Positions 2 to 51,000 of a stretch of DNA of 64,000 nt are shown here, piece by piece; the first letter of the stretch is position 1, and each line of letters starts with the position of its first letter. Where the stretch lies: contig JAICLE010000001.1 in NCBI GenBank assembly GCA_025927545.1, positions 70,313 through 134,312 on the forward strand. Direction: 5' to 3'. Made by a program: the position numbers and the translations under genes. The stretch is from Gemmatimonadales bacterium. GTDB taxonomy: Bacteria > Gemmatimonadota > Gemmatimonadetes > Gemmatimonadales > GWC2-71-9. The notes beneath the pieces were generated by a model that was given only the letters and a program-made list of their open reading frames with translations, ran no database searches and was not told where the DNA came from.

Positions 2-760
2 GCCTTCATCACCGTCAACGACATCGGGGGCGCCCCGGTGGACCTGACCGTCGGTCAGTTCCAGGTCTCGGACCCGATGTTCAAGCGGGAGCTGCGGCTC
101 GAGTTCGAGGACTATGCGATCTACCGGGCGCGGATGGGCGACTCACCCGTGGATCTCACCTACGACCGTGGGTTCGTGGCCAGCGCCGACGTGCTCGGCT
201 TCGGCGTGACGGGGCAGGTCGTCAACGGGAACGGCCGCGGCGCAGCGCAAGCCAATCGCAAGTTCGACAGCGACTTCGGCAAGAATTTCGCCCTCCACCT
301 CACCCGTGATCTGACGCGGGGGGTGCGGGTCGGCGGGTTCGGCTATCTCGGGCGCACCACCGCCGACGAGATCGAAAACCAGACGACGATGCTCGGGCTC
401 GACGCCACCCTGGAGCACGGTCCGCTCGAGGTGAACCTGCAGTACCTCCACCGCAACGACGACCGGCCCACCTTCACGTTCGCCAGCCAGCGAACCGACG
501 TGGATGGCGGCCTCGCGGAGCTCGTGGTGCGCCCCATGCGATCGCGCTGGCACGGGTTCGCGCTGTACAACCTGGTCACCGCCGACGCGCCCATCCTGAG
601 TGTGCGCCTGGGCGAGTTGGGCCCGCTTCGCCGCTACGAGACCTTGACCGGCGGAGTGGGTTACCTCGTGCGCCGGAACTTCCGGCTCACCGGGGAGGCG
701 ACGCAGGACCTGATGCAGGGGGGCACGCGCTGGACGCTGGGCTTCGTGTCCGCGTTCTAG
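2..760 (+). CDS. outer-membrane beta-barrel (porin-like) protein, 5' end outside window
   Basis: The reading frame is open to the window edge, with no stop upstream of the listed GTG at 38. It has alternating beta-strand-like sequence and a C-terminal ...WTLGFVSAF ending in Phe, typical of OM beta-barrels. No specific family recognised. Confidence 0.55.
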   Translation, partial: AFITVNDIGGAPVDLTVGQFQVSDPMFKRELRLEFEDYAIYRARMGDSPVDLTYDRGFVASADVLGFGVTGQVVNGNGRGAAQANRKFDSDFGKNFALHLTRDLTRGVRVGGFGYLGRTTADEIENQTTMLGLDATLEHGPLEVNLQYLHRNDDRPTFTFASQRTDVDGGLAELVVRPMRSRWHGFALYNLVTADAPILSVRLGELGPLRRYETLTGGVGYLVRRNFRLTGEATQDLMQGGTRWTLGFVSAF

Positions 761-769
761 CTCGCTGCG

Positions 770-1294
770 TCAGCGGATCTCCAGCCGATACATCGCGTGG
801 CACGCGTTGCAGCGGCCGGTGATCCGTCCGAGCCCCGCGAGGATCGCGGCGGCATCCGGTCCGACGGCCGGCAGCGAGTCGAACGCGCGGTGAGTGTCGA
901 GCGCGAGCGCCATCCAGTCAGCCGGGAGCAGGGCCTCGAGCTCGGGGTCCGCGGCCATCGCCATCCCCGCCGGTCGGGCGGCGATCCGGACGGCGGCGGA
1001 GTCGCCTCTGGCGCCGGCCACGAGCACCCCCTGAACCGACTGGAGCATGATCCGCATCTCGGCCAGGACCGCCTCCCGAGCCGCGTTCGGCAGCGTCAGG
1101 GTGCGGCGGGGTGGAACCGGAGTACCGGGTGACGCGGAGTCAGCGGCGGCTGATGAGGCATGCGCATGAGTCCCGGCGTGGGCTGGCGAAGCCGCCTCTG
1201 CGCGGCGGCGCGTGGACAGCCCAATAGACCAGACCACATTCGCGGCCGTCCACAGTACCAGGCCCACGAGGACTGCCGTCTTGCCAAGGGACAT
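770..1294 (-). CDS. membrane-anchored class II c-type cytochrome (cytochrome c'/c556-like)
   Basis: 174-aa ORF with a GAGGAA RBS upstream of the ATG at 1294. It has an N-terminal hydrophobic anchor (AVLVGLVLWTAANVVWSIGL), a His/Ala/Pro-rich linker (PAHAGTHAHAS), and a helical domain ending CNACHAMYR. That is the C-terminal CxxCH..YR signature of class II cytochromes c. Confidence 0.55.
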   Translation of the reverse strand: MSLGKTAVLVGLVLWTAANVVWSIGLSTRRRAEAASPAHAGTHAHASSAAADSASPGTPVPPRRTLTLPNAAREAVLAEMRIMLQSVQGVLVAGARGDSAAVRIAARPAGMAMAADPELEALLPADWMALALDTHRAFDSLPAVGPDAAAILAGLGRITGRCNACHAMYRLEIR

Positions 1295-1382
1295 ACGTTC
1301 CTCGGGTCGAGTGCCAAGCCGAATATCGGCCGGCTTCTCCCGCTCATCAAGCGCGCTCGGAAAGTCTCGCGCAGGAGCCCTA

Positions 1383-1414
1383 TTGACTCTCTACCATGGT
1401 ATAGGGTGTATCCT
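1383..1414 (+). promoter_or_regulatory. MerR-family type promoter (long 20-bp spacer with internal dyad)
   Basis: TTGACT (1383-1388), 20 bp, TATCCT (1409-1414). The spacer carries the imperfect dyad ACTCTCTACCA|TGGTATAGGGT around CCATGG (9 of 11 positions pair). It lies 97 nt upstream of the MerR-like gene on the same strand. Confidence 0.5.
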
Positions 1415-1510
1415 GCCTTCACGTGAGGACCGAACCTCACTGGGGCCACCCGATGTGGACCTCACGACGTGGGAGATCACATGCGCCGACCAGCATCCGC
1501 CCACCCCGCC

Positions 1511-1960
1511 ATGACCGTCGGTCAGCTCGCGCGCCGGGCGGGCGTGGGGGTCCAGACGGTCCGCTATTACGAGCGGCGGCACCTGCTTCCGACCGCGGCC
1601 CGCCGCGCCTCGGGCTACCGGGAGTTCAGTCCGGCGGCGCTCGACCGGGTTCGCTTCATCCGGCGGGCGCAGGAGCTGGGCTTTACCCTGTCCGAAATCG
1701 CCGAGCTGCTCGCGCTCCGGCTCGATCCGCATACCACTGCGGCCGAGGTCAAGGCGCGAGCCGGGCAGAAGATCGACGAGATCGACGGAAAGATCCGCGA
1801 CCTCGAGCGGATCCGGCACGGGCTGACCCACCTGGCCGGGCGTTGTCGCGGCGGCCGCGGCCCCACGGGAGATTGCCCGCTGCTCGAGGCGCTCGGGCCA
1901 CTGAGCGGCGGAGCCGGGCACGAATCGGATCACCCCGTCACATCCAATCCGGGAGATTGA
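1511..1960 (+). CDS. MerR family transcriptional regulator, CueR-like metal-binding loop
   Basis: HTH MTVGQLARRAGVGVQTVRYYERRHLL, followed by a dimerisation helix and a C-terminal CRGGRGPTGDCPLLEAL loop (C-x9-C then PLLEAL, compare the CueR C-x7-C-PIIENL loop). Start placed at ATG 1511, just before the HTH; the ORF opens at 1469. Confidence 0.85.
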   Translation: MTVGQLARRAGVGVQTVRYYERRHLLPTAARRASGYREFSPAALDRVRFIRRAQELGFTLSEIAELLALRLDPHTTAAEVKARAGQKIDEIDGKIRDLERIRHGLTHLAGRCRGGRGPTGDCPLLEALGPLSGGAGHESDHPVTSNPGD

Positions 1961-1962
1961 CC

Positions 1963-2205
1963 ATGCCGACCACCGAACGCGAGCTGGACTGCACCTCCAC
2001 CGTACACGAGCTCATCGAGCAGCATCCTGCCACCCGAGCGGTTTTCCAGCGCTTGGGCATCGACACCTGCTGCGGCTCGGCCGTCAGCGTTCAGGAGGCT
2101 GCACAGCGAGACGGTCTCGATCCCAACCGGCTGTGCGGCGAGCTCAGGGCGGCGGTCGAGGCCGAGGGGAGCCCCATCGGATACCGAGCAATTCCGTCGG
2201 ATTGA
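1963..2205 (+). CDS. stand-alone ScdA_N / DUF542 domain protein (N-terminal domain of RIC iron-centre repair proteins)
   Basis: 80 aa. TVHELIEQHPATRAVFQRLGIDTCCGSAVSVQEAA matches the DUF542 pattern with its CCG motif. GGGAGA RBS lies 7 nt upstream, and the ATG is 2 nt after the merR-like stop. Confidence 0.75.
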   Translation: MPTTERELDCTSTVHELIEQHPATRAVFQRLGIDTCCGSAVSVQEAAQRDGLDPNRLCGELRAAVEAEGSPIGYRAIPSD

Positions 2206-2282
2206 GACAACCGTCACGCCGGTGCCGCGCGGAAGGCGCGATCGTTGGATTCAGTGAAGTGAATGGGGGCAAGGTGCGCGAA

Positions 2283-3398
2283 ATGGCAACTGCAGATTTC
2301 GAGTCGCCGGAAGCCACGGATGCCGGTGAGCTCACCGGCGAACGGGTCCGCGAGGTGTTGGCCACGGTCCGCTACCCGGGGCTCAGCCGGGATCTCGTCT
2401 CCTTCGGGATGGTGGAGCACGTGAGCGTCTGCGATCGGCGGGTGAAAGTACGGCTCGCGATCGCCACCCGCGATCCGGGCATCCCCGCGCAGCTCCGAAC
2501 CCGCATTGCCGACGCGCTCCTCCCACTGGGCGCCGCGACCGTTGCGGTCGAGATCGCACCGCCGAGCACGACGCCGAAGCCCACCGCGCGCGGCACGCCG
2601 GACCCATGGGCGGAGCAGGTCCGGCTCGCCGCGGTGCGGCACGTGGTGGCGGTCGGTGCGGGCAAGGGCGGCGTGGGGAAGAGCACGGTCGCGGCAAATC
2701 TGGCGCTGCTGCTGGCCCGCGAGGGACTGCGCGCGGGCCTGCTGGACGCCGACATCTATGGTCCGAGCCTGCCGTTGCTGCTGGGCATCGAGGACGGTGC
2801 CGGGCGCGTCCGGATGACGCCCGACAAGCACATCCTGCCGCTCGAGGCGCACGGGCTCCCGCTCATCAGCTTCGGCTTCTTTCTGGGCGAAGGCTCGCCC
2901 GCGATCTGGCGCGGACCGATGGTCTCCAAGGCGGTGAAGCAGTTCTCGCGCGGCGTGGCGTGGCCCGAACTCGACGTGCTGATCGTGGACCTCCCACCCG
3001 GTACGGGGGACATCCCGCTCAGCCTGGCGCAGGCCGTCGTGCTGTCCGGCGCGGTCGTGGTCACGCAGCCGGCCCGGGTGGCCACCGCGGAGGCGCGGAA
3101 GGCCGCCCAGATGTTCCAAACCCTGGAGGTGCCGGTACTCGGTATCGTGGAGAACATGGCCGGAGCGTTCGGGCACGGAGCAGGCGCGGCGATCGCCGCC
3201 GAGCTGGCGGTGCCCTTTCTCGGCTCGGTCCCGTTCGACGAGGGCATGGTGGCGGAAGGAGACGCCGGGATCCCGACGGCGCTCGCACGGCCGCGCAGCG
3301 AGGCCGCCCTGGCGATGGAGGTCGTCGCACACGCCGTCGCCTCGGCGCTGGGGTGGCAGCACGTGGCCGACGGGTCGGCCCCCGGGGCCGAGCGGTGA
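2283..3398 (+). CDS. apbC: Mrp/NBP35 (ApbC) family Fe-S cluster carrier ATPase with N-terminal DUF59-like domain
   Basis: Deviant Walker A GKGGVGKSTVAANLA, followed by DADIYGPSLP, and an N-terminal VREVLATVRYPGLSRDLVSFGMV region. The start could instead be GTG 2274. Confidence 0.9.
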   Translation: MATADFESPEATDAGELTGERVREVLATVRYPGLSRDLVSFGMVEHVSVCDRRVKVRLAIATRDPGIPAQLRTRIADALLPLGAATVAVEIAPPSTTPKPTARGTPDPWAEQVRLAAVRHVVAVGAGKGGVGKSTVAANLALLLAREGLRAGLLDADIYGPSLPLLLGIEDGAGRVRMTPDKHILPLEAHGLPLISFGFFLGEGSPAIWRGPMVSKAVKQFSRGVAWPELDVLIVDLPPGTGDIPLSLAQAVVLSGAVVVTQPARVATAEARKAAQMFQTLEVPVLGIVENMAGAFGHGAGAAIAAELAVPFLGSVPFDEGMVAEGDAGIPTALARPRSEAALAMEVVAHAVASALGWQHVADGSAPGAER

Positions 3399-4717
3399 CG
3401 CCGGCAGCGCCTGCGGCGCCTACTCGACCGGCCTTCACGCCGGGGCCGGGCGCGCCGGGCGGGCTCGCGCCCGCCCCGGGGTCCATCCGCCTGGCCGCCG
3501 AGCACTTCGTTGCCGCGGCGATCTACCTGCTGGCCGGCGCGCTCGGACTCCTCTGGGTGGCGCCGGAGCTCGCGGGCGGCGCATACCTCTCGCCCCATGT
3601 GGCCGGAGTCACCCACCTCTTCACCCTCGGCTGGCTCACGATGACGGCATTCGGGGCGCTCTGCCAGCTCCTGCCGGTGGCACTGGGCACGCCGGTGCGC
3701 TCGACCCGTCTGGCCCACGCGGGCTTCTGGGCGTTCGCGCCCGGCGTCGGCCTGTTCGCGGCGGGCGTTGCGACCAGCCAGGTGGCGCTGCACCACCTCG
3801 GGATCCTTCTGGTGGCCATCGGCATTCTGCTCGTGCTGTCGAATGTCGGCGGGGCGCTCCCGCGCGCTCGGACGCGAGACGTGACCTGGGCCGCGATCGC
3901 GCTGGCGCTCGGGTTCCTCGCATCCACCCTCGTGCTGGGGATCATCCTGCTCCACAACCTGCACACCGGCTTCATCGCCGGCGCACGGGACCGGGTGCTG
4001 GCGACGCACCTCCACGTCGCGATCGTGGGATGGCTGCTCATGATGATCGTGGGTGTGTCCCATCGGCTGCTGCCGATGTTCCTCCTGTCGCACGGTGCGG
4101 ACACGTCGTGGACCCGGCGCGCGCTCGCGCTGCTGGCCTCCGGCGTCGTGGTCCTCGGCACGGGTCTCACCTTGCAGCAGCCCGCGGCGGCCTGGGCGGG
4201 CGCGCTGCTGCTGCTGGGCGGGCTGGGGTGCTTTCTCCGCCAGGCCTGCGGGTTCTATCGGGCGCGGGTCCGGAAGAAGCTCGATGTGGGCATGCGGTTC
4301 GTCGCCACCGCGCTCGGGTTTCTCACGACGAGCGCCCTCCTGGGCGTGGCAGTGCTGGCAACCGGCGGCTCGGCGCCGCGGCTGGCCACCGCCTACGTGA
4401 TCGCCGGCCTTCTCGGAGGGATCGTGCTCTACGTCATCGGATTCTTCTACAAGATCGTGCCGCTCCTCGCCTGGACCGCGCGCTTCCGCGGCCGGATGGG
4501 AAAGGAGCCGGTGCCGACAGTCGCGCAGCTCTACTCCGCGCGGCTGGGCTACGTGCAGCTCGGGCTCATGGCCGGAGGAGTGGCGATTCTGGCGGCGGGC
4601 ACCGCCGCGGGCTCGGCGCACGCCGCCCGCTGTGGCGCGGTCCTCTTCCTGGGCGGAGTGCTCGTGTTCCTGGCCCAGCTCGGCCGCGTCGCCCGAGGGC
4701 GGGGAGCGGCGGCATGA
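3395..4717 (+). CDS. uncharacterised 12-TM His-rich membrane protein with three-fold internal repeat
   Basis: The GTG start overlaps the apbC stop (GTGA at 3395-3398). About 12 hydrophobic helices. A motif repeats in helices 2, 6 and 10: THLFTLGWLTMTAFGALCQLLPV / THLHVAIVGWLLMMIVGVSHRLLPMF / AYVIAGLLGGIVLYVIGFFYKIVPLL. The part of the 2606-4717 ORF upstream of 3395 is a shadow over apbC. Confidence 0.7.
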   Translation: MTPAAPAAPTRPAFTPGPGAPGGLAPAPGSIRLAAEHFVAAAIYLLAGALGLLWVAPELAGGAYLSPHVAGVTHLFTLGWLTMTAFGALCQLLPVALGTPVRSTRLAHAGFWAFAPGVGLFAAGVATSQVALHHLGILLVAIGILLVLSNVGGALPRARTRDVTWAAIALALGFLASTLVLGIILLHNLHTGFIAGARDRVLATHLHVAIVGWLLMMIVGVSHRLLPMFLLSHGADTSWTRRALALLASGVVVLGTGLTLQQPAAAWAGALLLLGGLGCFLRQACGFYRARVRKKLDVGMRFVATALGFLTTSALLGVAVLATGGSAPRLATAYVIAGLLGGIVLYVIGFFYKIVPLLAWTARFRGRMGKEPVPTVAQLYSARLGYVQLGLMAGGVAILAAGTAAGSAHAARCGAVLFLGGVLVFLAQLGRVARGRGAAA

Positions 4718-5583
4718 GCGGCGGCATCGGAGTCCGGCCGGTAGCGGCCGGCGATCGGGTCAGTGACGTGCTCGCGCGCGACGAGGCGCTGGTGGAAGTG
4801 TTCGTGCGCCAGTCGCACCACTTCACCAAGTTGCGCAACCGTACCATGCGCAAGGTCATGGCGCGGCTCGTCACCGTGGAGGATGCGGCCCGGATCGCGG
4901 GCGCCGACGCGGCGGCCCTCGTCGGGGAGCTCAACGCGGCGTTGGGGATCGTGTCGGATTCCGGGGCGCCCAGCGGCGTCGCCGACGAGGCGCGCGCCCT
5001 CCGTCCCGAAGCTTCGCCGGCAAGCGCGGCCCCCGGACGCCCCAGCGGCGCGAGGGTCATGGAGATCGATGTGCGGGAGGATCTCCGCGCCGGCCGAGAG
5101 CCATTCTCCAGGATCATCGCGGCCGTCCAAGCGGCAGGCGCCGGCGAGGTGCTGTGGCTCCGCGCGACGTTCGAGCCGGTGCCGCTCTACACCGTGCTCG
5201 CCAAGCGTGGATTCGTGCACGAGGCGAGAGCGGAGGGCCCGGAGGACTGGTCGGTCTGGTTCTGGCGGCCGGAGACGTCCGGGGGACAGCCGGCCGCCGC
5301 GGCGCCGCCGGCGGAGGCGGCCGATACGGAAGCTGCTTCGGAGGCTCCGCGAGAACCAGCCACCGCAACCGTCCGCCTCGACGTGCGCGGCCTCGAGCCG
5401 CCGGAGCCGATGGTCCGCACTCTCGCGGCACTGGAGACGCTGCCGGAGGGCCACACATTGGTGCAGATCAACGTGCGGGTGCCGCAGTTCCTGCTGCCGA
5501 TCCTCGCTGAGCGCGGCTATGCGTGGGAGGTGGACGAATCGCCTGCCGAGCACGTCGTCGTTCGGATCCGGCGGCGCACTTGA
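4714..5583 (+). CDS. DUF1858-like domain fused to two DUF2249-like (TusA/SirA-fold) domains
   Basis: The ATG overlaps the stop of the membrane gene (ATGA at 4714-4717). N-terminal VSDVLARDEALVEVFVRQSHHFTKLRNRTMRKVMARLVTVEDAARIAG is DUF1858-like. It is followed by MEIDVREDLRAGREPFSRII... and VRLDVRGLEPPEPMVRTLAALETLPEGHTLVQIN..., which are DUF2249-like repeats. Confidence 0.7.
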   Translation: MSGGIGVRPVAAGDRVSDVLARDEALVEVFVRQSHHFTKLRNRTMRKVMARLVTVEDAARIAGADAAALVGELNAALGIVSDSGAPSGVADEARALRPEASPASAAPGRPSGARVMEIDVREDLRAGREPFSRIIAAVQAAGAGEVLWLRATFEPVPLYTVLAKRGFVHEARAEGPEDWSVWFWRPETSGGQPAAAAPPAEAADTEAASEAPREPATATVRLDVRGLEPPEPMVRTLAALETLPEGHTLVQINVRVPQFLLPILAERGYAWEVDESPAEHVVVRIRRRT

Positions 5584-5701
5584 TCGGATCTTCACCCCGA
5601 GCGCGAGCGAGAGACCCAATCATCCGTTCCGGACGCACCGGCGGGAAGGCTGGGTGTCCAGCCACGCGATCATCATCCATCTCAAACCGGAGAATCAACC
5701 C

Positions 5702-5935
5702 ATGACCCCACAGACCCTCGAGCTCGACGTTCGCGCGATTCCGCCGCGGGAGAAGCATCCGTCCATCTTCCGCACGTTCGATGGGCTCTCGAGCGGCCAG
5801 GCGATGGTGATCATCAACGATCACGACCCGCGTCCGCTGCGCTACCAGTTCATGGCCGAGCGGGCCGACAGCTTCGACTGGCAGTACGAGGCGGAAGGGC
5901 CGGAGATCTGGCGGGTGCGCATCAGCCGGCGCTGA
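5702..5935 (+). CDS. DUF2249 domain protein
   Basis: 77 aa. LELDVRAIPPREKHPSIFRTFDGLSSGQAMVIINDHDPRPLRYQF...GPEIWRVRISRR follows the canonical DUF2249 pattern. GGAG RBS is 9 nt upstream. Confidence 0.8.
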   Translation: MTPQTLELDVRAIPPREKHPSIFRTFDGLSSGQAMVIINDHDPRPLRYQFMAERADSFDWQYEAEGPEIWRVRISRR

Positions 5936-5981
5936 GCACGAATTCCGGTTGACGCTGGGCGGAAGTGGCCTTCACTCGGTT

Positions 5982-6026
5982 GTCATCCTGAGGGTCCCTG
6001 AGCGCAGCGAAGGGGCCTGAAGGATC
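5982..6026. repeat. short hairpin-forming intergenic repeat (expanded copy), related to 26862-26886
   Basis: GTCATCCTGAG-GGTCCCTGAG-CGCAGCGAAGG-GGCCTGAAGGATC shares the TCATCCTGAG...GCGAAGGAT core with the second copy. It lies in the 202-nt gap between the DUF2249 and crp/fnr genes. Confidence 0.45.
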
Positions 6027-6137
6027 TACTCCGCCGGCGTCCGACCCATTCCCGGGCAAGTTCCCTCGCGTCCCCCCGGGAGGACAGTGCGAGGCATCGG
6101 GATGACTGAATTGGCTGAGCGACAAACCCGAAGCCCA

Positions 6138-6869
6138 TCAGCCGCCGTCTTCTTCATACCGCGGCCGCTCGCCGGGCCGCGCGAGGGTGCGGAGCTGCCC
6201 CACGTCGGGCAGCAGCAGACGGCGGCGGCCCTGCTCGATCACGAGCCCCTTCTCGCGGAGCTGCTTGAACGCGCGGGAGACGGATTCGCGAGCCGTGCCC
6301 AACTCGACCGACAGCGCCTCGCGCGTGCGGTCGAGCGTGACCACCACGCCGTCGGCGCTCTCGGTGCCGGTGCGATCGGCCAGGGCCGCCAGATAGAGCG
6401 CCAGCCGGGCGGCCACGTCGCGGAACGCGAGCGTCTGGGTGAGCTGGACCAGGTGGCGAAGGCGGCGCCCGAGGTCGCGGATGATCGCCGCGGCGACATC
6501 GGGGTCCGTGCGGTAGAGCGCCTCGAACTCGGCGCGGGGGACGAACAGCAGCACGCTCGGCTCCTCCGTGATGGCGGAGGCGGGGTAGGGGCCGCCGTCG
6601 AACAGCGGCAGCTCGGCCACGGGCTGGCCGGGACCCTCGGTGTGGAGCACCTGCTCGCGGCCGGAAGGACTTGCGCGGTAGATCCGGACGCGCCCGGAAG
6701 CGATGACGTAGAGGCCGCGGTACGGTTCGCCCGCGGTGAAGAGCAGGGAGCCGGCGGGATGACTGCGGAGCACGCTCCGCTGGGCCAGCCGGCGGAGCGC
6801 GGCCGGCTCGAACGCGGCGAAGAGGGGGAGCCGCTGCAGCAGGGCGACGGGATCGCCGGCGGGTGACAT
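6138..6869 (-). CDS. Crp/Fnr family transcriptional regulator (no N-terminal Cys cluster; Dnr/NnrR-like class)
   Basis: cNMP-binding-like beta-roll (LFTAGEPYRGLYVIASGRVRIYRASPSGREQVL) and a C-terminal HTH (TREALSVELGTARESVSRAFKQLREKGLV). Start at ATG 6869; the ORF extension to 7244 is Ser/Thr/Pro-rich with no recognisable domain and runs over the opposite-strand DUF59 gene. Confidence 0.85.
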   Translation of the reverse strand: MSPAGDPVALLQRLPLFAAFEPAALRRLAQRSVLRSHPAGSLLFTAGEPYRGLYVIASGRVRIYRASPSGREQVLHTEGPGQPVAELPLFDGGPYPASAITEEPSVLLFVPRAEFEALYRTDPDVAAAIIRDLGRRLRHLVQLTQTLAFRDVAARLALYLAALADRTGTESADGVVVTLDRTREALSVELGTARESVSRAFKQLREKGLVIEQGRRRLLLPDVGQLRTLARPGERPRYEEDGG

Positions 6870-6897
6870 GGTGCGCAATCTATCCGGGGAGGTTTCG

Positions 6898-7206
6898 ATG
6901 AGTGAGGCCGAGCAGTCCGTCGATCCGCGCCTCGATCCGCTGTGGCAGGCGCTGAGCTCGGTGATCGACCCGGAGATCGGGCTCGACATCGTCACGCTGG
7001 GCCTGGTGTACGACCTGGAGATCCGGGACGACGTCGCCCGGATCACCCACACGCTCACCACGCCCGGCTGCCCGATGGAGAAGGTCATCACGGACGGTAT
7101 CCGGAGTGCCGGGGCGATGGTGGAGGGCGTGCGGGGCGTGGAGACCGAGCTGGTGTGGGAGCCGGCGTGGCATCCGGGGATGATCTCGGGCGGCGGATTT
7201 TCCTGA
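6898..7206 (+). CDS. DUF59 (MIP18/SufT/PaaD-like) Fe-S assembly protein
   Basis: SSVIDPEIGLDIVTLGLVYDLEI...TLTTPGCPM is the classic DUF59 motif. GGGGAGG RBS is 7 nt before ATG 6898. Confidence 0.8.
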   Translation: MSEAEQSVDPRLDPLWQALSSVIDPEIGLDIVTLGLVYDLEIRDDVARITHTLTTPGCPMEKVITDGIRSAGAMVEGVRGVETELVWEPAWHPGMISGGGFS

Positions 7207-7251
7207 GCCGGAATCCCGCCGGCGGGTGTCCCGGAGGGGTCCAACCGAGGC

Positions 7252-7257
7252 TATATT
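7252..7257 (+). promoter_or_regulatory. possible -10 element (TATATT) for the tRNA-Cys gene
   Basis: This is the only AT-rich hexamer in the GC-rich gap, about 20 nt upstream of the tRNA 5' end. No convincing -35 element. Confidence 0.3.
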
Positions 7258-7277
7258 ACGCGCCCGTGCGGGTCCCG

Positions 7278-7348
<71 letters not shown>

Positions 7349-7571
7349 CTCGTCGAAGTATTGCCTCTGCCCGCCGTGTCGCCATCTCACGCTCGTGCTC
7401 TGGACACTGCCTGCCGATCCATTCCGTGCGCGTCCGGCACCGTATCTCTTCCCCATCCGCCCCGCACTCCGCCCTCTCGAATGGCCGCATAGCTCGCAGG
7501 GTCGCTGACCGGTCGGCGAAGGCATCGCGGCCTCCGCGTCGTGCCAGGCACGTATCCGGAGGGGTTGAGCC

Positions 7572-9041
7572 ATGTCACTCCAGGTGACACGCCAGCTCGT
7601 CGGCCTCGGAGCGGGCCGAGCCGCGCATCGAACGGTTCATGCGTGGCTCCTCACCCTCGGCTTTGCAATCGCCGGGACCGCCGCCGGCGCCGGTCGGCTG
7701 CCAGCACAGGTCGAACACCAGCATCACGACTCGACGGCAGCCCAAGCGGCAAGCATGTCCAGCATGCCGCCCATGCCGGGCATGCCGCGGCGCCCCTTCG
7801 GCATCCCGATGACCCGCATGGGCTCAGGGACCACCTGGCTTCCCGATGCGTCCTCCATGAGGGCCTGGCACTTCACGGCCGGCCCCTGGATGCTGATGGT
7901 GCACGGCGACGCATTCCTGCAGTTCGATCATCAGGGTGGCCCCCGGGGGGACGACCAGATCGGGAGCATCAATTGGGGGATGCTGATGGCGATGCGCCAG
8001 CTGGCCGGCGGCACGCTGCACCTGCACGGCATGGCGAGCGCGGAGCCGCTCACGATCGGCAGGCAGGGGTATCCGCTCCTGCTGCAGAGCGGCGAGACCT
8101 TCCGAGGCGTGCCGCTCCACGACCGGCAGCACCCGCACGACCTGTTCATGGAGCTCTCGGCCTTCTACGAGCGGCCTATCACCCGGCGAGTCGGCTTCAT
8201 GGTGTACGCGGCGCCGGTGGGAGAACCGGGGATCGGGCCCGTGGCCTACATGCACCGCCCCTCGGCCCTGAACGACCCCTTCGCGCCGCTGTCGCACCAC
8301 TGGACCGACGCCACGCACATCACCTATGGGGTGCTCACGGCGGGGCTCTTCAGCCGCACGCTCAAGCTGGAAGGCACGCTGTTCAACGGACGCGAGCCGG
8401 ACGAAGATCGTTACGATTTCGACTTCCACCCGCTCGATTCCTACGGGCTCCGCCTGTCGGCAAACCCGACGCCGCACTGGGCCCTGAGCGGGAGCTATGG
8501 CTACCTGAAGCAGCCCGAAGCACTTCATCCGGAAGAAAACCAGCGTCGCCTCGGCGCGTCCGTGCTGCACACGGTGCGGCTGGGCCGCCAGGTCGAGTGG
8601 GCATCCGCGCTGATCTACGGCGGCAACAAGCATGTGACGCCAGGCGGAGCGGAAGCCGGACGCTGGGAGCACAGCCTCATGGCCGAGTCCAACCTGCAGC
8701 TCGACGCGGCCAACACGGTCTTCGGGAGAGTCGAGTACGTGCGCAAGAGCGCTGAGGACCTGGTCATTCCCGCGACGCCGGACCAGGAGTTCGACGTCGG
8801 CACGCTTGCGCTCGGCTACGTTCGCGAGCTCGCCGACTTCCGCGGCGCGACACTCGGGCTCGGCGCCCGCGGGGCGATCAACCTGGTGCCGCGGACGCTC
8901 GAGGGCGTGTACGGGAGCCGGACCCCCGTGGGAGTCGCCGTGTTTCTCCGCGTTCGGCCGAGGCTGCTCGAGGGCGCGCACGCGATGGATGCCGAGATGC
9001 ACGCGGCACGGAGTGACACGACGGGTGGGTGGCCACCGTGA
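7572..9041 (+). CDS. Met/His-rich secreted, probably outer-membrane beta-barrel, protein of unknown family
   Basis: GGAGGGG RBS. N-terminal signal-like segment, then QVEHQHHDSTAAQAASMSSMPPMPGMPRRPFGIPMTRM, followed by beta-strand-like alternation (FDVGTLALGYVRELADFRGATLGLGARGAINLV). The 3' end overlaps the start of the CopB-type ATPase gene. Confidence 0.6.
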   Translation: MSLQVTRQLVGLGAGRAAHRTVHAWLLTLGFAIAGTAAGAGRLPAQVEHQHHDSTAAQAASMSSMPPMPGMPRRPFGIPMTRMGSGTTWLPDASSMRAWHFTAGPWMLMVHGDAFLQFDHQGGPRGDDQIGSINWGMLMAMRQLAGGTLHLHGMASAEPLTIGRQGYPLLLQSGETFRGVPLHDRQHPHDLFMELSAFYERPITRRVGFMVYAAPVGEPGIGPVAYMHRPSALNDPFAPLSHHWTDATHITYGVLTAGLFSRTLKLEGTLFNGREPDEDRYDFDFHPLDSYGLRLSANPTPHWALSGSYGYLKQPEALHPEENQRRLGASVLHTVRLGRQVEWASALIYGGNKHVTPGGAEAGRWEHSLMAESNLQLDAANTVFGRVEYVRKSAEDLVIPATPDQEFDVGTLALGYVRELADFRGATLGLGARGAINLVPRTLEGVYGSRTPVGVAVFLRVRPRLLEGAHAMDAEMHAARSDTTGGWPP

Positions 9042-11083
9042 GCCCGGGGGAGCCACACGCGCATCGCGCGCACCACCACGAGGGCCACCCGCCCGGCGCG
9101 GCTCACGACAAGCACGCCGGCCACAGCGTGGCGATGTTCCGCGACAGGTTCTGGCTCACCCTGCTCCTGACCATTCCGACCCTCATCTGGGGCCACATGC
9201 TCCAGAGCGTGCTCGGTTATCGGGCGCCGCAGTTCCCCGGCTCGGGCTGGATCCCACCGCTCTTCGGCACCGTGGTCTTCTTCTACGGCGGGTGGCCGTT
9301 CATCCAGGGCGCCGTGCGCGAGCTCCGCGACCGGCTGCCTGGGATGATGACGCTCATCGCGCTGGCCATCGCGGTCGCCTTCGGCTTCAGCGCCGCCGTC
9401 ACGCTGGGCTATCCCGGCATGCCGCTCTGGGAAGAGCTCGCGACGCTGGTCGCCATCATGCTGCTGGGACACTGGATCGAGATGCGCTCCATCTCCCAGG
9501 CCCAGGGCGCCCTGGCCGAGCTGGTCAAGCTGCTGCCGAACACGGCCACGCGGGTGGTTGCCGGCGGCGGCCCGGAACGCCTCGAGGAAGTGCCGCTCGC
9601 GGCGCTCGCCGACCGGGATCTGGTGCTGGTCCGGCCCGGCGCCAGCGTGCCCGCGGACGGCGTGGTGCGCTCGGGCCGCAGCGCGCTCGACGAATCGATG
9701 ATCACCGGTGAATCCCGCCGGGTCGACAAGGCCGAGGGGGACACCGTCATCGCGGGGACGGTCAATGGCGGCGGCTCGCTCCGGGTCGCGGTGACCGGGA
9801 CCGCTGAGCGGACGATGCTGGCGGCCATCATGCGCCTGGTCGAGCAGGCCCAGACCTCGCGCAGCCGAGCGCAGGCGCTGGCCGACCGGGCCGCGTTCTG
9901 GCTCACGGTCGTGGCGCTCGTGGCGGGGGCCGTGACGCTAGTCGCGTGGCTTGCCGCGGGGGCGGAGCCGGCCTACGCCGTGGAGCGGCTGGTCACCGTG
10001 CTGGTCATCGCCTGTCCGCACGCGCTCGGGCTGGCGGTCCCGCTCGTGATCGCGATCTCGACCACGCTGGGGGCGCGGAGCGGCCTGCTGGTCCGCGACC
10101 GGCGCGGCCTGGAGGAGGCGCGGCTGCTCGACGCCGTGGTGTTCGATAAGACGGGCACCCTCACGCTCGGGTCGCACCGGGTCGTGAGCACGCGGATGGC
10201 CGCTGACGTGAGCGAGGTGGAAGCGCTCCGGCTCGCCGCCGCGGTGGAACGGGACGCCGAGCACCCGATCGGCCGGGCGATCGTGGCGAGCGCCCGGGAG
10301 CGCGGGCTCGAGATCCCGATGGCCGCGGACTTCGTAGCCATTCCGGGTCGGGGTGTGCAAGCCGTGGTGGAGGGACGACGCTTGGCCGCCGGCGGCCCCA
10401 ACCTGCTCCGCGAGGCAGGGCTCGCTCAGCCCACCGAGCTGCAGGCGTTTGCCGTTGAGGCGGCGGCGCGCGGCCAGGGAGTCGTGTACCTGCTCGAGGG
10501 CGACCGTGTTCTCGCGGCGTTCGCCGTCGCCGACGCGGTGCGGCCCGAGTCACGGGAAGCCGTCCGGCGGTTACACGAGCTGGGGATCGGGGTGGTCATG
10601 ATGACGGGCGACGCTCAGGCGGTCGCCGACGCGGTGGCCCGGGAGCTCGGCATCGACACCGTGTTCGCGCAGGTGCTGCCGGGAGACAAGGCGGCGCGCA
10701 TCGAGGCGTTGCAGCGCGGAGGGAAGCGGGTGGCGATGGTGGGTGACGGCGTGAACGATGCGCCCGCGCTGGTGACCGCGGACGTCGGTATCGCCATCGG
10801 GGCCGGCACCGACGTGGCGGTCGAGGCGGGCGACGTGGTGCTGGTTCGGAGCGACCCGCGCGACGTGCCGCGGATCGTGGCGCTGAGCCGGGCGAGCTAC
10901 CGGAAGATGGTGCAGAACCTCTGGTGGGCCGCCGGGTACAATATTGTGGCCATCCCGCTCGCGGCCGGCGTTCTGGCGCCGATCGGCGTGGTGCTCTCGC
11001 CGGCGGTCGGGGCGGTGCTGATGTCGCTCAGCACCGTGATCGTGGCCGTCAACGCGCAACTGCTGCGGCGGGCGCACGTGTGA
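9029..11083 (+). CDS. copB: heavy-metal (copper) translocating P1B-type ATPase, CopB-like (CPH motif, His-rich N-terminus)
   Basis: His-rich N-terminus HAHRAHHHEGHPPGAAHDKHAGH, TM motif ACPHALGLAVP, DKTGTLT, AEHPIGRAIV, MTGD, GDGVNDAPAL. GTG start at 9029, or GTG 9038 forming a GTGA overlap with the upstream stop. Confidence 0.9.
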   Translation: MATVSPGEPHAHRAHHHEGHPPGAAHDKHAGHSVAMFRDRFWLTLLLTIPTLIWGHMLQSVLGYRAPQFPGSGWIPPLFGTVVFFYGGWPFIQGAVRELRDRLPGMMTLIALAIAVAFGFSAAVTLGYPGMPLWEELATLVAIMLLGHWIEMRSISQAQGALAELVKLLPNTATRVVAGGGPERLEEVPLAALADRDLVLVRPGASVPADGVVRSGRSALDESMITGESRRVDKAEGDTVIAGTVNGGGSLRVAVTGTAERTMLAAIMRLVEQAQTSRSRAQALADRAAFWLTVVALVAGAVTLVAWLAAGAEPAYAVERLVTVLVIACPHALGLAVPLVIAISTTLGARSGLLVRDRRGLEEARLLDAVVFDKTGTLTLGSHRVVSTRMAADVSEVEALRLAAAVERDAEHPIGRAIVASARERGLEIPMAADFVAIPGRGVQAVVEGRRLAAGGPNLLREAGLAQPTELQAFAVEAAARGQGVVYLLEGDRVLAAFAVADAVRPESREAVRRLHELGIGVVMMTGDAQAVADAVARELGIDTVFAQVLPGDKAARIEALQRGGKRVAMVGDGVNDAPALVTADVGIAIGAGTDVAVEAGDVVLVRSDPRDVPRIVALSRASYRKMVQNLWWAAGYNIVAIPLAAGVLAPIGVVLSPAVGAVLMSLSTVIVAVNAQLLRRAHV

Positions 11084-48794: not shown

Positions 48795-49865
48795 TCACCC
48801 GCCTGCGTGGCGCAGCAGCCGCACGACGGCCCGTTCCTGCTCGCTGAGTCCGGCGGCCTCCGACACCTTCGGCGGGCCGCCGTTCTTCAGCCGGTCCTCG
48901 AGCGTGCCCGCCTCGTAGCTCTCGAGCACGACGGGGTGCACGTAGTATTTCCGGCACACGGCCCGGGTGTTGTTCAGCTGCCCGGCGACCTCGTCGATCA
49001 CCCGCACGATGGCGGATTTGGCCTCGCGCTCCGACGCCGCGGGACCGATCGCCTGCAGCGCCGCCAGCGCCTGCAAGGTGCCGGCCCAGGTGCGGAAGTC
49101 CTTGGCCGTGAAGTCCTCACTCGTGAGCTCCCGCAGATAATCATTCACGTCGCTCGACCCGATGGACACCCGCTCACCGTCCTCGGCCACGTACTGGAAC
49201 AACTCCGCTCCCGGGAGCGCCTGGCAGCGGGCCACGATGCGCGCGAGCCGGCGATCGCTGAGCGCGACCCGCTGCATCTTGCCGCTCTTGCCCCGGAACT
49301 CGAAGTGGAGCGTGGAGCCGGAGACCTCCACATGGCGGCTCCGGAGCGTGGTCAGGCCGAACGAATGATTCGACTTGGCGTACTCGTCGTTGCCCACCCG
49401 GATCGCGGTGGACTCGAGCAGCCGGACAACGGTCGCGAGCACCTTTTCCCTGGGCAGCCCGGGCAGCGCGAGGTCCTGCTCGAGCCGAGCCCGAAGCCGA
49501 GGCAGTGCCTCGCTGAACGCGAGCATCCGGCTGAACTTGGTCTCGTCCCGCACCTCGCGCCACCGGTGGTGGTAGCGGTACTGCTTCCGGCCGCGGGCGT
49601 CTCGTCCGGTCGCCTGCAGGTGACCGTTGGCGGCCGGGCAGATCCAGACGTCGGTGTAGGCCGGTGGGATGGCCAGCCGGCGGATGCGCTCCAGCGTTGC
49701 CCGGTCGCGGATCGCTCGGCCGTCCGGACCGACGTAGCTGAAGCCTCGGCCCGCTCGCCGGCGGTGAATGCCGGGAGACGAGTCGCTCACGTACCGCAGC
49801 CCCGCGGCCTGGGCCGACTCTTCCGGCTCCGGTGAGGGCTGGTGCTTCCGACGGGCTGGACTCAT
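48795..49865 (-). CDS. DNA topoisomerase IB (poxvirus-like bacterial type)
   Basis: GLRYVSDSSPGIHRRRAGRGFSYVGPDG, LAIPPAYTDVWICPAANGHLQATGRDARGRKQYRYH. ATG 49865 is preferred over ATG 49907 because the intervening codons are A/T-ending, atypical for this genome. Confidence 0.85.
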   Translation of the reverse strand: MSPARRKHQPSPEPEESAQAAGLRYVSDSSPGIHRRRAGRGFSYVGPDGRAIRDRATLERIRRLAIPPAYTDVWICPAANGHLQATGRDARGRKQYRYHHRWREVRDETKFSRMLAFSEALPRLRARLEQDLALPGLPREKVLATVVRLLESTAIRVGNDEYAKSNHSFGLTTLRSRHVEVSGSTLHFEFRGKSGKMQRVALSDRRLARIVARCQALPGAELFQYVAEDGERVSIGSSDVNDYLRELTSEDFTAKDFRTWAGTLQALAALQAIGPAASEREAKSAIVRVIDEVAGQLNNTRAVCRKYYVHPVVLESYEAGTLEDRLKNGGPPKVSEAAGLSEQERAVVRLLRHAGG

Positions 49866-50064
49866 GGATCCTGTAGTTGGCGCTTCATCGGTCGAGACCT
49901 TGATCATAGCGTCGCCCGCGGACCCGTAAGGTGACGCCAGTCACAGGCTTGCATAAAGATTCACCGGCTCGACCCTCTACACACCGCTCACCGCCTGCGC
50001 TAGCTTCGGGGCGTTTGTCGGGCGGCCCTCGCCGGCCCGCTCCAGCCTCCGACAGGATGCCACC

Positions 50065-51000
50065 GTGATCATGCGACAGGGCCTGCTCTGGCTCTCCCAC
50101 CGGCAGGGCGTATTCAACTTTGTCCGCCGCAACGGGCTGGCGCGGCGGTTCGCCTCGCGGTTCGTGGCGGGCGAGTCGATCGAGGAGGGCGTCGCGGCCG
50201 CCGGGGAGCTGGCACGGCGCGGCATCACCGCTTCGCTCGACCTGCTGGGGGAAAGCGTGACGGCCGAGGCGGAGGCCCGGCTGGCACGGGACCAGTACCT
50301 CCGGATGCTCGAGCGCATGGCGGCCAGCGGAGTCGAGGTGAACGTCTCGATCAAGCTGACGCAGATGGGGCTCGACATCTCCGAGCCGCTCTGCGTCGGC
50401 AACATGACGGCGATCCTGGAGCGGGCCGCCGCGCTGCACGGCTTCGTGCGGCTGGACATGGAGGGCTCCGCGTACACCCAGCGCACGCTCGATTTCTTCC
50501 GCCGGTACCTGTTCGACCGGTTCGGTGCGCACTGCGGGGTGGTGATCCAGGCGATGCTCCGCCGCTCCGAGGCGGACATCGAGGACCTCGTCGCGATGAA
50601 GGCGCGGGTCCGGCTCTGCAAGGGCGCCTACCTCGAGCCGGCCGCCGTCGCCTTTCCGGAGAAGGCGGACGTGGACCGGAACTACGTCCGCCTCATGGAG
50701 CGGCTGCTGCTGGCAGGCAACTACCCGGGGATCGCTACCCACGACGAGGCGATCATCTCCCACGCGCGCGCCTTCGTCCGCCGGCAGGACATCCCGACCG
50801 ACCGGTTCGAGTTCCAGATGCTCTACGGCGTGCGGCGTGACCTCCAGGGAACCCTGCGCCAGGCGGGCTGCCGGCTCCGGGTCTACATCCCTTTCGGGAC
50901 CCAGTGGTATCCTTACCTGATGCGGCGACTGGCGGAGCGACCCGCCAACATCGCCTTCTTCCTTGGCAACATGGTGCGGGAGTCGATACCGGGACGATGA
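50065..51000 (+). CDS. monofunctional proline dehydrogenase
   Basis: ITASLDLLGESV, VNVSIKLTQMG, VRLCKGAY, IATHDE, EFQMLYGV and PYLMRRLAERPAN motifs. Confidence 0.85.
   Translation: MIMRQGLLWLSHRQGVFNFVRRNGLARRFASRFVAGESIEEGVAAAGELARRGITASLDLLGESVTAEAEARLARDQYLRMLERMAASGVEVNVSIKLTQMGLDISEPLCVGNMTAILERAAALHGFVRLDMEGSAYTQRTLDFFRRYLFDRFGAHCGVVIQAMLRRSEADIEDLVAMKARVRLCKGAYLEPAAVAFPEKADVDRNYVRLMERLLLAGNYPGIATHDEAIISHARAFVRRQDIPTDRFEFQMLYGVRRDLQGTLRQAGCRLRVYIPFGTQWYPYLMRRLAERPANIAFFLGNMVRESIPGR

Follow-up and report, generated by a model that had tools for sequence, protein, structure and literature searches.

We analysed a stretch of 64,000 nucleotides (nt) from a Gemmatimonadales genome (assembly GCA_025927545.1, contig JAICLE010000001.1, positions 70,313 to 134,312 of the forward strand), which as a whole is called the window below, and within it a string of genes at 770 to 7206 that an earlier, sequence-only reading had taken for a copper- and nitric oxide (NO)-stress system. 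The G+C content of the window is approximately 70%, and its best protein matches come from Gemmatimonadales. The string encodes an Mrp/NBP35-family P-loop ATPase with an N-terminal DUF59-like domain (mrp, 2283..3398, +; ParA PF10609, 4.3e-77), a membrane protein with 12 transmembrane (TM) helices (3395..4717, +), a 289-amino acid fusion of one DUF1858 and two DUF2249 domains (4714..5583, +), a 77-amino acid protein with a single DUF2249 domain (5702..5935, +; PF10006, 1.6e-30), a Cys-free Crp-family regulator (6138..6869, -; Pfam cNMP_binding and HTH_Crp_2) and, divergent from the crp gene, a SufT-like DUF59 protein of the FeS_assembly_P type with a TTPGCP motif (6868..7206, +; likely start ATG 6898; PF01883, 3e-16). 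Upstream of mrp lie the genes for a MerR regulator of the metal-sensing type with a two-Cys loop, C-x9-C (1481..1960, +; Pfam MerR and MerR-DNA-bind), and for a stand-alone ScdA_N (DUF542) protein of 80 amino acids with a Cys-Cys motif, DTCCG (scdA, 1963..2205, +; PF04405), and, divergent from merR, a membrane-anchored c-type cytochrome (770..1294, -).

The gene string and its junctions, as the sequence-only reading had given them, were borne out. Two nucleotides separate the merR stop codon (TGA, 1958-1960) from the ATG of scdA at 1963; the stop codon of mrp overlaps the start of the 12-TM gene (GTGA, 3395-3398), whose own stop overlaps the start of the fusion gene (ATGA, 4714-4717); and GGAGA lies 9 nt ahead of the start of the single-DUF2249 gene at 5702. 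Most of the domain calls of that reading were likewise recovered in profile searches, namely MerR (MerR-DNA-bind, 8.7e-21), ScdA_N (3.3e-12, exceeding the Pfam cut-off), ParA/NUBPL, DUF1858 (7.6e-12), DUF2249 (1.4e-36 for the two domains of the fusion protein), Crp and DUF59, with the cytochrome falling below its Pfam cut-off.

For the 12-TM protein, previously described only as rich in His, the number of helices stands, and the description is corrected to the subunit I fold of haem-copper oxidases and NO reductases (NORs). The protein has no Pfam or NCBIfam family above cut-off (Pfam COX1, 13.4 bits against 34.8), and the profile of its family matched no PDB chain even at E<=10, so that a fold search was needed. 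The AlphaFold2 model, built on 28 relatives, has 12 TM helices (pLDDT 81.6, pTM 0.84), and Foldseek matched it to CcoN of cbb3 oxidase (3mk7, TM-score 0.72-0.74, E 2e-6), to NorB of cNOR (4xyd, TM-score 0.69) and to aa3 oxidases as well. The family is large, with 2551 clusters at 50% identity (E<=1e-3), and 31 of 50 diverse members match Pfam COX1 (E<0.01), the best of them at 1.3e-17. We refer to the protein below as oxidase-like.

The two DUF2249 proteins have named counterparts in Thermus thermophilus. The 77-amino acid protein is 63% identical to DrpA over 72 amino acids (E 1e-37) and carries the conserved motifs KHP and NDHDP, while the fusion protein is 37% identical to DrpB over 276 amino acids, collinear over its full length and with a domain architecture identical to that published for DrpB. 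Judged by these alignments, the window proteins are orthologues of DrpA and DrpB, and the genes are called drpA and drpB here. Neither has solved relatives that could be found by sequence. DUF2249 passes the Pfam cut-off for TusA and is thus TusA-like, with 'PPRE' or 'EPPEP' in place of 'CPEP' and without the TusA catalytic Cys.

The view that the gene combination is not a described system was not sustained, as mutant phenotypes have been published for the Thermus orthologues; we agree with the sequence-only reading that no biochemical function has been assigned to the membrane component or to its DUF2249/DUF1858 partners. DrpA and DrpB were introduced as 'denitrification regulatory proteins' (Chahlafi et al. 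2018, PMC6282519). The drp promoter depends on DnrT, an activator of the CRP family; without DrpB the nar and dnr promoters become constitutive, and drpAB mutants lose nitrate control and make NarG protein with approximately 10% of the activity; DrpB is partly membrane-bound without a TM segment, and DrpA was reported to be periplasmic, though it has no signal peptide (PMC6282519). Neither 'oxidase' nor 'DUF59' occurs in the main text of that paper, which appears not to treat the corresponding genes; in T. thermophilus JL-18 these lie approximately 1.3 kb downstream of drpB. The order in this strain is narCGHJIK, drpA, drpB, a four-helix COX1-like mini-protein, a protoglobin, a 383-amino acid 'hypothetical protein' and a DUF59 gene, and hhalign assigns the 'hypothetical protein' to the oxidase-like family (probability 100%, E 7e-46). 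The 13-mer TGACCCAGGTCAT occurs twice, in identical form, on JL-18 pTTJL1801 (L085): at 8717-8729, ahead of drpA by 51 nt, and at 11060-11072, ahead of the oxidase-like gene by 47 nt. As a candidate DnrT box, it would place both genes in one regulon.

We investigated the distribution of the module in two sets of loci. The first consisted of 80 Gemmatimonadota loci, which are related to each other. The second came from a metagenome scan with an alignment of non-Gemmatimonadota members, which gave 547 confirmed relatives, and from which 80 loci were kept, chosen via one conserved peptide pattern; 53 of these were informative, with at least 1.2 kb on both sides, and neighbours were counted within 3 kb. 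Profiles were built by iteration and may have drifted; the Mrp profile did drift onto DUF59 proteins, via the N-terminal DUF59-like domain of Mrp, and Mrp matches were kept only if the matched stretch was at least 180 amino acids long.

In the Gemmatimonadota loci, mrp is directly upstream of the oxidase-like gene in 59/71 and drpB directly downstream in 60/71, and drpA is nearby in 59/63. Within 7 kb, 51 of the 80 loci contain DUF59, 42 Crp and 32 ScdA_N, and MerR was found in 9, CopB in 2 and the cytochrome in 1. In the metagenomic set, DUF2249 (52/53) and DUF59 (51/53) are near-constant neighbours of the oxidase-like gene, followed by DUF1858/ScdA_N (19/53), Crp and cupin (14/53 each), four-helix oxidase-like mini-proteins (10/53), hemerythrin (8/53), NosZ (5/53), and Rrf2 and Mrp (3/53 each); MerR was found in none of the 53 loci, nor in any of the 80. 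Natural fusions at the cytoplasmic C-terminus join the oxidase-like protein to DUF2249 and ScdA_N (P0159) or to DUF59 (P0236, P0241). From the locus counts and these fusions, the invariant core of the module is DUF2249, the oxidase-like protein and DUF59, with DUF1858/ScdA_N as a frequent fourth member.

This core is present in at least five phyla, represented by Ignavibacteria, Polyangia, Thermus, rhizobia and Gemmatimonadota, and in two further unassigned contigs; one sampled locus lacked it. In Ignavibacteria it follows nosZ-nosLDFY-Rrf2 and lies beside a suf operon, in Polyangia it lies between Crp/hemerythrin genes and narGH, and on the Mesorhizobium plasmid pML2037 it is found among genes for pseudoazurin, NnrS, DUF1858, Crp/Fnr and nosRZD, with a 'hypothetical' neighbour that belongs to the oxidase-like family (hhalign probability 100%, E 2e-43). 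The conservation of gene order in related genomes, on which the sequence-only reading had made its proposal depend, is far beyond chance among the Gemmatimonadota loci, and that of the core extends across phyla, indicating that the genes form a real, conserved functional unit, as that reading had held. The nar operon of Haloferax encodes a fusion of DUF2249 with an Mrp-like P-loop NTPase/iron-sulphur (Fe-S) carrier, the expression of which rises under denitrification (PMC11218638). This fusion, together with those of the oxidase-like protein, the overlapping codons in the window and the membrane-bound state of DrpB, suggests that the module proteins form a physical complex.

Across 50 diverse members of the oxidase-like family, H74 (TM2) and H205 (TM6) are the only invariant His; H207 reaches 78% conservation. 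The canonical set of six His ligands (one each in TM2 and TM6, two each in TM7 and TM10) is absent, as only two of the six have counterparts and neither TM7 nor TM10 has a conserved His in these members. The position in TM10 that is symmetric to the His residues is Tyr334 (76%), and a pattern, [H/Y]-x6/12-G-x7-G...P, recurs in TM2, TM6 and TM10 with Tyr334 at its third position, which fits the three-fold internal symmetry of the oxidase fold. An alignment of the family with E. coli CyoB alone was not significant (hhalign probability 3%); its best local match pairs H205-x-H207 with CyoB H419-x-H421 (TM10), a mere hint of the same symmetry. Judged by its positively charged loops, the protein would have both termini on the cytoplasmic side, like oxidases, and with this topology H74 and H205 would lie approximately seven residues from the outer helix ends. 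At equal depth in neighbouring repeats, they are most simply understood as the ligands of one haem or metal ion. The catalytic centre of the oxidases is gone from the family.

These data bear on the idea that the protein is a minimal enzyme consuming NO or O2, as NOR does, and NnrS has been proposed to do, with electrons or metal donated by DrpA, DrpB and DUF59. The fold match to subunit I of cbb3 oxidase and cNOR and the COX1 matches within the family would suit an enzyme, as would the NnrS and pseudoazurin genes at the Mesorhizobium locus and the hemerythrin and cupin genes that are frequent neighbours elsewhere. We nonetheless consider it improbable, given the depleted His complement; an electron-entry partner of the subunit II, NorC or CcoO kind is neither encoded in the window nor conserved in related loci, and the Pfam NnrS model (PF05940) fails on the family, with no match to the window protein even at E<=10 and a match to 1 of 50 relatives at 4e-4.

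Mini-proteins of 144-151 amino acids were found in Thermus (L085:9780-10214), at L087:8672-9127 and L091:20603-21058, and in six Gemmatimonadota loci (L006, L013, L019, L050, L051 and L080); none is encoded in the window. Their size leads us to read them as four-helix proteins that match the TM9-12 part of COX1. The Thermus mini-protein covers Pfam COX1 positions 344-406, those of L087 and L091 have precomputed COX1 matches, and that of L091 has a weak NnrS match also.

Genes of nitrogen-oxide respiration accompany the module in several lineages. Among the 80 metagenomic loci, 11 have nosZ, narG or nrfA within 6 kb, far above chance for a single-copy gene, and the module stands beside narGH in Thermus and Polyangia, beside nosZ clusters in Ignavibacteria, Mesorhizobium and 6 Gemmatimonadota loci, and beside nrfHA in L090. 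DUF2249 genes are induced in Haloferax denitrification (PMC11218638), and a DUF1858 gene belongs to the Bradyrhizobium NnrR regulon. With these neighbours and the Thermus, Haloferax and Bradyrhizobium literature, the nitrogen-oxide side of the sequence-only reading is well founded. We read the window as the Gemmatimonadota version of a widespread module, the products of which would form a membrane complex with an accessory part in nitrogen-oxide respiration or in NO stress, and we rate the chances of this reading at a little below even.

We additionally identified features of the Mrp-like ATPase that set it apart from its characterised relatives. It retains the deviant Walker A motif GKGGVGKS, matches ParA/NUBPL (PF10609) at 259 bits and has an N-terminal FeS_assembly_P domain, and scores below the cut-off of the ApbC equivalog (250.9 bits against 348). 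In Mrp, ApbC and NBP35 a CxxC motif ligates a bridging [4Fe-4S] cluster. The window protein has ENMAGAFGHGAG where these proteins carry CxxC, and none of its 65 orthologues has CxxC after the ENM motif. The CP motif (Cys) of the N-terminal DUF59-like domain is missing too, and 11/12 of the orthologues inspected have a single Cys. The handling of Fe-S clusters by Mrp/ApbC, on which the sequence-only reading drew, does not transfer directly to the window, and because the Cys motifs are missing, Fe-S cluster carriage by this ATPase is not to be assumed. The window ATPase and its 65 orthologues constitute a Cys-less branch of an Fe-S carrier family.

The same data weigh on a second explanation, in which the module is a cofactor delivery machine with no sensing role: DUF59, DUF2249, ScdA_N and the Mrp-like ATPase would supply the oxidase-like protein with iron, copper or an Fe-S fragment, and this protein would pass the cargo into or across the membrane to mature the respiratory nitrogen-oxide reductases. 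Near-universal DUF59 fits this well, as SufT, a characterised DUF59 relative, acts in Fe-S maturation (PMC4982691). So do the TusA-like character of DUF2249, the suf operon that abuts the Ignavibacteria locus and the Thermus drpAB mutants, in which NarG protein is made with little activity; the MerR gene of the window and the CopB-like operon downstream of it (see below) would suit a supply of metal. We consider delivery unlikely all the same, as the ATPase lacks both Cys motifs, DUF2249 lacks the catalytic Cys of TusA, and permanent fusions to a membrane protein resemble subunits, not transient chaperones. Furthermore, we know of no member of the oxidase fold that transports metals.

For the Crp regulator, assigned to the Dnr/NnrR class by the sequence-only reading, we confirmed the absence of an FNR-type N-terminal Cys cluster, the protein containing no Cys at all; on DNA recognition the assignment is not supported, FNR-type boxes being all but absent from the regions scanned. 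Its recognition helix is RESVSR, and it is 39% identical to the Thermus Crp/Fnr regulator at the dnrT position, beside a GAF-domain (DnrS) gene. The usual Gemmatimonadota layout has scdA and duf59 (-) divergent from crp, mrp, the oxidase-like gene, drpB and drpA (+). A GTGAC-N4-GTCAC site (equivalent to GTGA-N6-TCAC) is present in 29/29 duf59-crp intergenic regions, and TGAGACAnCCGTCAC precedes mrp in 29/29 crp-mrp intergenic regions. TTGAT-N4-ATCAA was absent from these 29 duf59-crp regions and gave one match, with two mismatches, in the 29 crp-mrp regions. The GTGA-N6-TCAC site fits what the RESVSR helix would be expected to bind. Overall, a CRP-type site lies upstream of mrp in 51/64 loci, including the window and L002; the predicted site of the window, GAGACAACCGTCAC (2204..2217, +), is placed by conservation and position, overlaps the scdA stop codon and lies approximately 66 nt upstream of the mrp ATG. 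The regulator that is widely conserved with the module is the Crp protein, not MerR.

The window clade differs from the usual layout in that the crp and duf59 start codons are approximately 28 nt apart (6869-6898), or overlap if duf59 starts at 6868, and the GTGAC-N4-GTCAC site between the two genes is missing in the window, unlike in the 29 other loci. Candidate FNR/Dnr boxes in 700-7700 were rejected, the only matches (5458 and 5804) lying inside coding sequence. We also noted a perfect palindrome, GTGACGCCAGTCAC, at 49931-49944, which agrees with the consensus of the module's Crp-type sites. It is intergenic, flanked by the genes for topoisomerase IB (48795-49907, -) and proline dehydrogenase (50065-51000, +), and may be another target of this Crp protein or of a related Crp regulator.

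The MerR regulator was inspected with regard to the copper response. A MerR-type promoter (1383..1414, +) precedes the gene, with TTGACT (1383-1388), a 20-bp spacer and TATCCT (1409-1414); within the spacer is a near-perfect dyad, CTCTACCATGGTATAG (1389-1404), with no second copy in the window and 0.04 chance matches expected. The true start of the gene is likely ATG 1511 (MTVGQLARRAG). The NCBIfam ZntR, CueR and MerR models all match at approximately 1e-34 and below their cut-offs (CueR, 116.6 bits against 147.4), and the best solved relatives are MerR (4ua1, 5crl), CueR and CadR, with the two loop Cys aligned. Ala occupies the third-Cys position, which Hg and Zn sensors use, and the protein would be compatible with a CueR-like monovalent-metal site. 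The same promoter and operator precede merR-scdA in L002, L066, L068 and L058, and in L027 and L039, with a divergent merR, the promoter points towards scdA, for which reason we take the ScdA_N gene to be the conserved target of MerR. In merR-carrying loci ScdA_N is paired with MerR; elsewhere it mostly shares with duf59 an operon that runs divergently from crp.

Downstream of the DUF59 gene, we identified an operon comprising a 489-amino acid protein with a His/Met-rich N-terminal stretch (QVEHQHHD...MSSMPPMPGMP) and no Pfam or NCBIfam match (7572-9041, +), and a P1B-type ATPase with a His-rich N-terminus and a CPH motif, which is CopB-like and overlaps the last 13 nt of the preceding gene (9029-11083, +). 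These probably constitute a copper-export pair; L003 and L004 are the only loci with the same pair beside the module.

The sequence-only reading had taken the whole string for one CueR-controlled regulon against copper, and possibly NO, stress, transcribed from the MerR promoter through the last DUF2249 gene. The C-terminal loop, with two Cys and no third as in CueR, the promoter with its 20-bp spacer and dyad, the tight packing of the genes and the CopB-type operon 0.4 kb downstream of the DUF59 gene are all in keeping with this. MerR, however, is a lineage-specific addition to the module (9/80 related loci, 0/80 metagenomic loci), less widely conserved than Crp and with the ScdA_N gene alone as the conserved target of its promoter. 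The conserved CRP-type site between scdA and mrp separates the string, so that a single MerR operon does not hold, and NCBIfam cannot tell CueR from ZntR or MerR. The copper link comes down to the two-Cys loop and to the CopB-like operon, present in 2/80 related loci, and is weak; a MerR operator upstream of that operon was sought and is absent. We regard the single CueR regulon as very improbable, and the copper-stress reading of the window should not be propagated as it stands. The string is better read as two putative units: a MerR-driven merR-scdA, with possible read-through, and a Crp-site-driven set of mrp, the oxidase-like gene, drpB and probably drpA.

The cytochrome gene, the product of which has a CxxCH motif (CNACH) near the C-terminus, had been called cytochrome c'-like. 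Pfam PF01322 matches the protein at 17.2 bits, short of the 26.5-bit cut-off, and because homologues of 45% identity carry PF01322 it is probably a class II c-type cytochrome (c'/c556 family). NO binding by cytochromes c' depends on a five-coordinate haem that lacks Met as a sixth ligand; here Met79 and Met82 in the first helix are invariant, and a c556-type Met-His haem is as likely as the c' type. The cytochrome accompanies the module only in the closest relatives (1/80 loci).

Around the string, we identified a tRNA-Cys (GCA) gene between the DUF59 gene and the next operon (7278-7349, +; ARAGORN and Rfam), beyond which Rfam gave no match. An open reading frame (ORF) at 38-760 (+) encodes 240 amino acids with no Pfam match and with a C-terminus, ...GFVSAF, as in outer-membrane beta-barrels; its start may be clipped by the window edge. 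A generic scan of 700-7700 found no sigma-70 promoters or intrinsic terminators, and RNA folding was not significant in the drpB-drpA spacer (z -0.14) or the drpA-crp spacer (z -1.9).

For the proposed accessory membrane complex, we infer each step of the following scheme. The oxidase-like protein would hold one cofactor, probably a single b-type haem or metal ion, via H74 and H205, and DrpB, DrpA and DUF59 would dock on its cytoplasmic face, joined in Gemmatimonadota by the Cys-less Mrp-type ATPase and the small ScdA_N protein. The complex would work during nitrogen-oxide respiration or NO exposure, keeping the metal centres of the nitrogen-oxide enzymes active, and, as the Thermus drpAB mutants suggest, would feed back on a Crp activator such as Thermus DnrT. 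The Crp site at 2204-2217 would control the main promoter for mrp, the oxidase-like gene, drpB and probably drpA. In lineages with the MerR/ScdA_N addition, the ScdA_N gene, and by read-through perhaps the rest, would be under the control of a two-Cys, probably monovalent-metal-sensing MerR.

Several points weigh against this scheme. Within the window itself, no nar, nir, nor, nos or nrf gene was found among the approximately 45 ORFs scanned, and most Gemmatimonadota loci stand alone, with nosZ within 7 kb in only 6/80. The periplasmic location of Thermus DrpA conflicts with the cytoplasmic placement that follows from the C-terminal fusions and the positive-inside topology. The binding of a cofactor would be deduced from two invariant His only, and the putative Crp sites are assigned from conservation and position only. 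Finally, a transcription factor is adjacent in only 14/53 metagenomic loci, and a purely regulatory function of the core is thus unlikely.

The Drp module itself was already known from Thermus, and the Haloferax paper (PMC11218638) attributes to Pei et al. 2014 the linking of DUF2249 with novel homologues of oxidases. In the Thermus Drp and Haloferax RNA-seq papers we found neither the near-universal core of DUF2249, oxidase-like protein and DUF59 nor the fusions, the membership of drpAB in this core or the common Crp-type sites. The window lineage adds the Cys-less Mrp ATPase and the MerR/ScdA_N pair, and its closest relatives also the class II cytochrome c and the CopB-like operon. We propose tentatively, and as a view that is somewhat unlikely to hold, that the triad is an unrecognised type of membrane complex, distributed across many phyla, in which the oxidase fold has been cut down to a single two-His site and repurposed as a sensor/transducer or as a metal-centre maintenance device for nitrogen-oxide metabolism, with TusA-like DrpA and DrpB as its cytoplasmic output.

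If this is true, the missing membrane partner in the Thermus Drp model is identified. The presence of DrpA and DrpB in one module with an oxidase-fold protein offers a hypothesis for the membrane anchor of DrpB and the carrier of the signal, which the Thermus genetic system could address. A protein family of this size nearly always occurs with DUF2249 and DUF59, and none of the three has an assigned biochemistry; the placement beside nar, nos and nrf genes and the phenotypes of the Thermus drpAB mutants point to an unknown accessory step in nitrogen-oxide respiration, the process that controls nitrous oxide (N2O) and NO emissions. The family would also show what the respiratory-oxidase fold can become after losing its catalytic centre.

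Compared with known systems, the window is closest in its DUF2249 proteins to the Thermus module, and the promoter boxes of Thermus have a TGAC-N4-GTCA core in common with the Gemmatimonadota sites. The order of the genes is different, with the oxidase-like gene, drpB and drpA in succession and overlapping stop and start codons, and, unlike in Thermus, the module has neither a nar operon beside it nor a DnrS-type GAF protein, whereas the Cys-less Mrp ATPase and the MerR/ScdA_N pair are extra. The ATPase resembles the Mrp/ApbC/NBP35 carriers in its P-loop, ParA/NUBPL domain and DUF59-like N-terminus, and departs from them in the CxxC motif. The MerR protein shares with CueR the helix-turn-helix, the coiled coil, the C-terminal two-Cys loop, the lack of a Cys at the divalent-sensor position and a long-spacer promoter with a dyad; it differs in the length of the loop (C-x9-C, or C-x6-C in some orthologues, against C-x7-C), in an Ala in place of CueR Ser77, and in having the ScdA_N gene, not a copper exporter, as its target. 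Its operator resembles the ZntR, PbrR and CadR dyads more than it does CueR boxes. The RIC/YtfE/ScdA proteins share the ScdA_N domain and the link to nitrosative stress with the window, and their layout of a small N-terminal helical domain followed by a second module is paralleled by DrpB (DUF1858 and DUF2249), although the window ScdA_N protein lacks their hemerythrin-like di-iron domain (RIC equivalog, 35.6 bits against a cut-off of 204.7).

For the oxidase-like protein, two comparisons are closest. NnrS is a haem- and copper-containing 12-TM protein of NnrR/NsrR regulons. It is similar in its 12 TM helices, its distant kinship with the oxidase superfamily, its nitrogen-oxide-linked context and its lack of a clear enzymatic role, and is encoded next to the module in Mesorhizobium; by its Pfam model it is a separate family. 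Pei, Li, Kinch and Grishin reportedly described, in 2014 (Protein Sci 23:1220), novel families of homologues within the haem-copper oxidase/NO reductase superfamily. They have in common with the window protein the 12-TM subunit I fold, the loss of most canonical His and, by the account in PMC11218638, a gene neighbourhood with DUF2249, and they are also comparable through the four-helix COX1-like mini-proteins of some loci. The locus belongs both to the Drp module and to these 'novel oxidase/NOR homologue' families.

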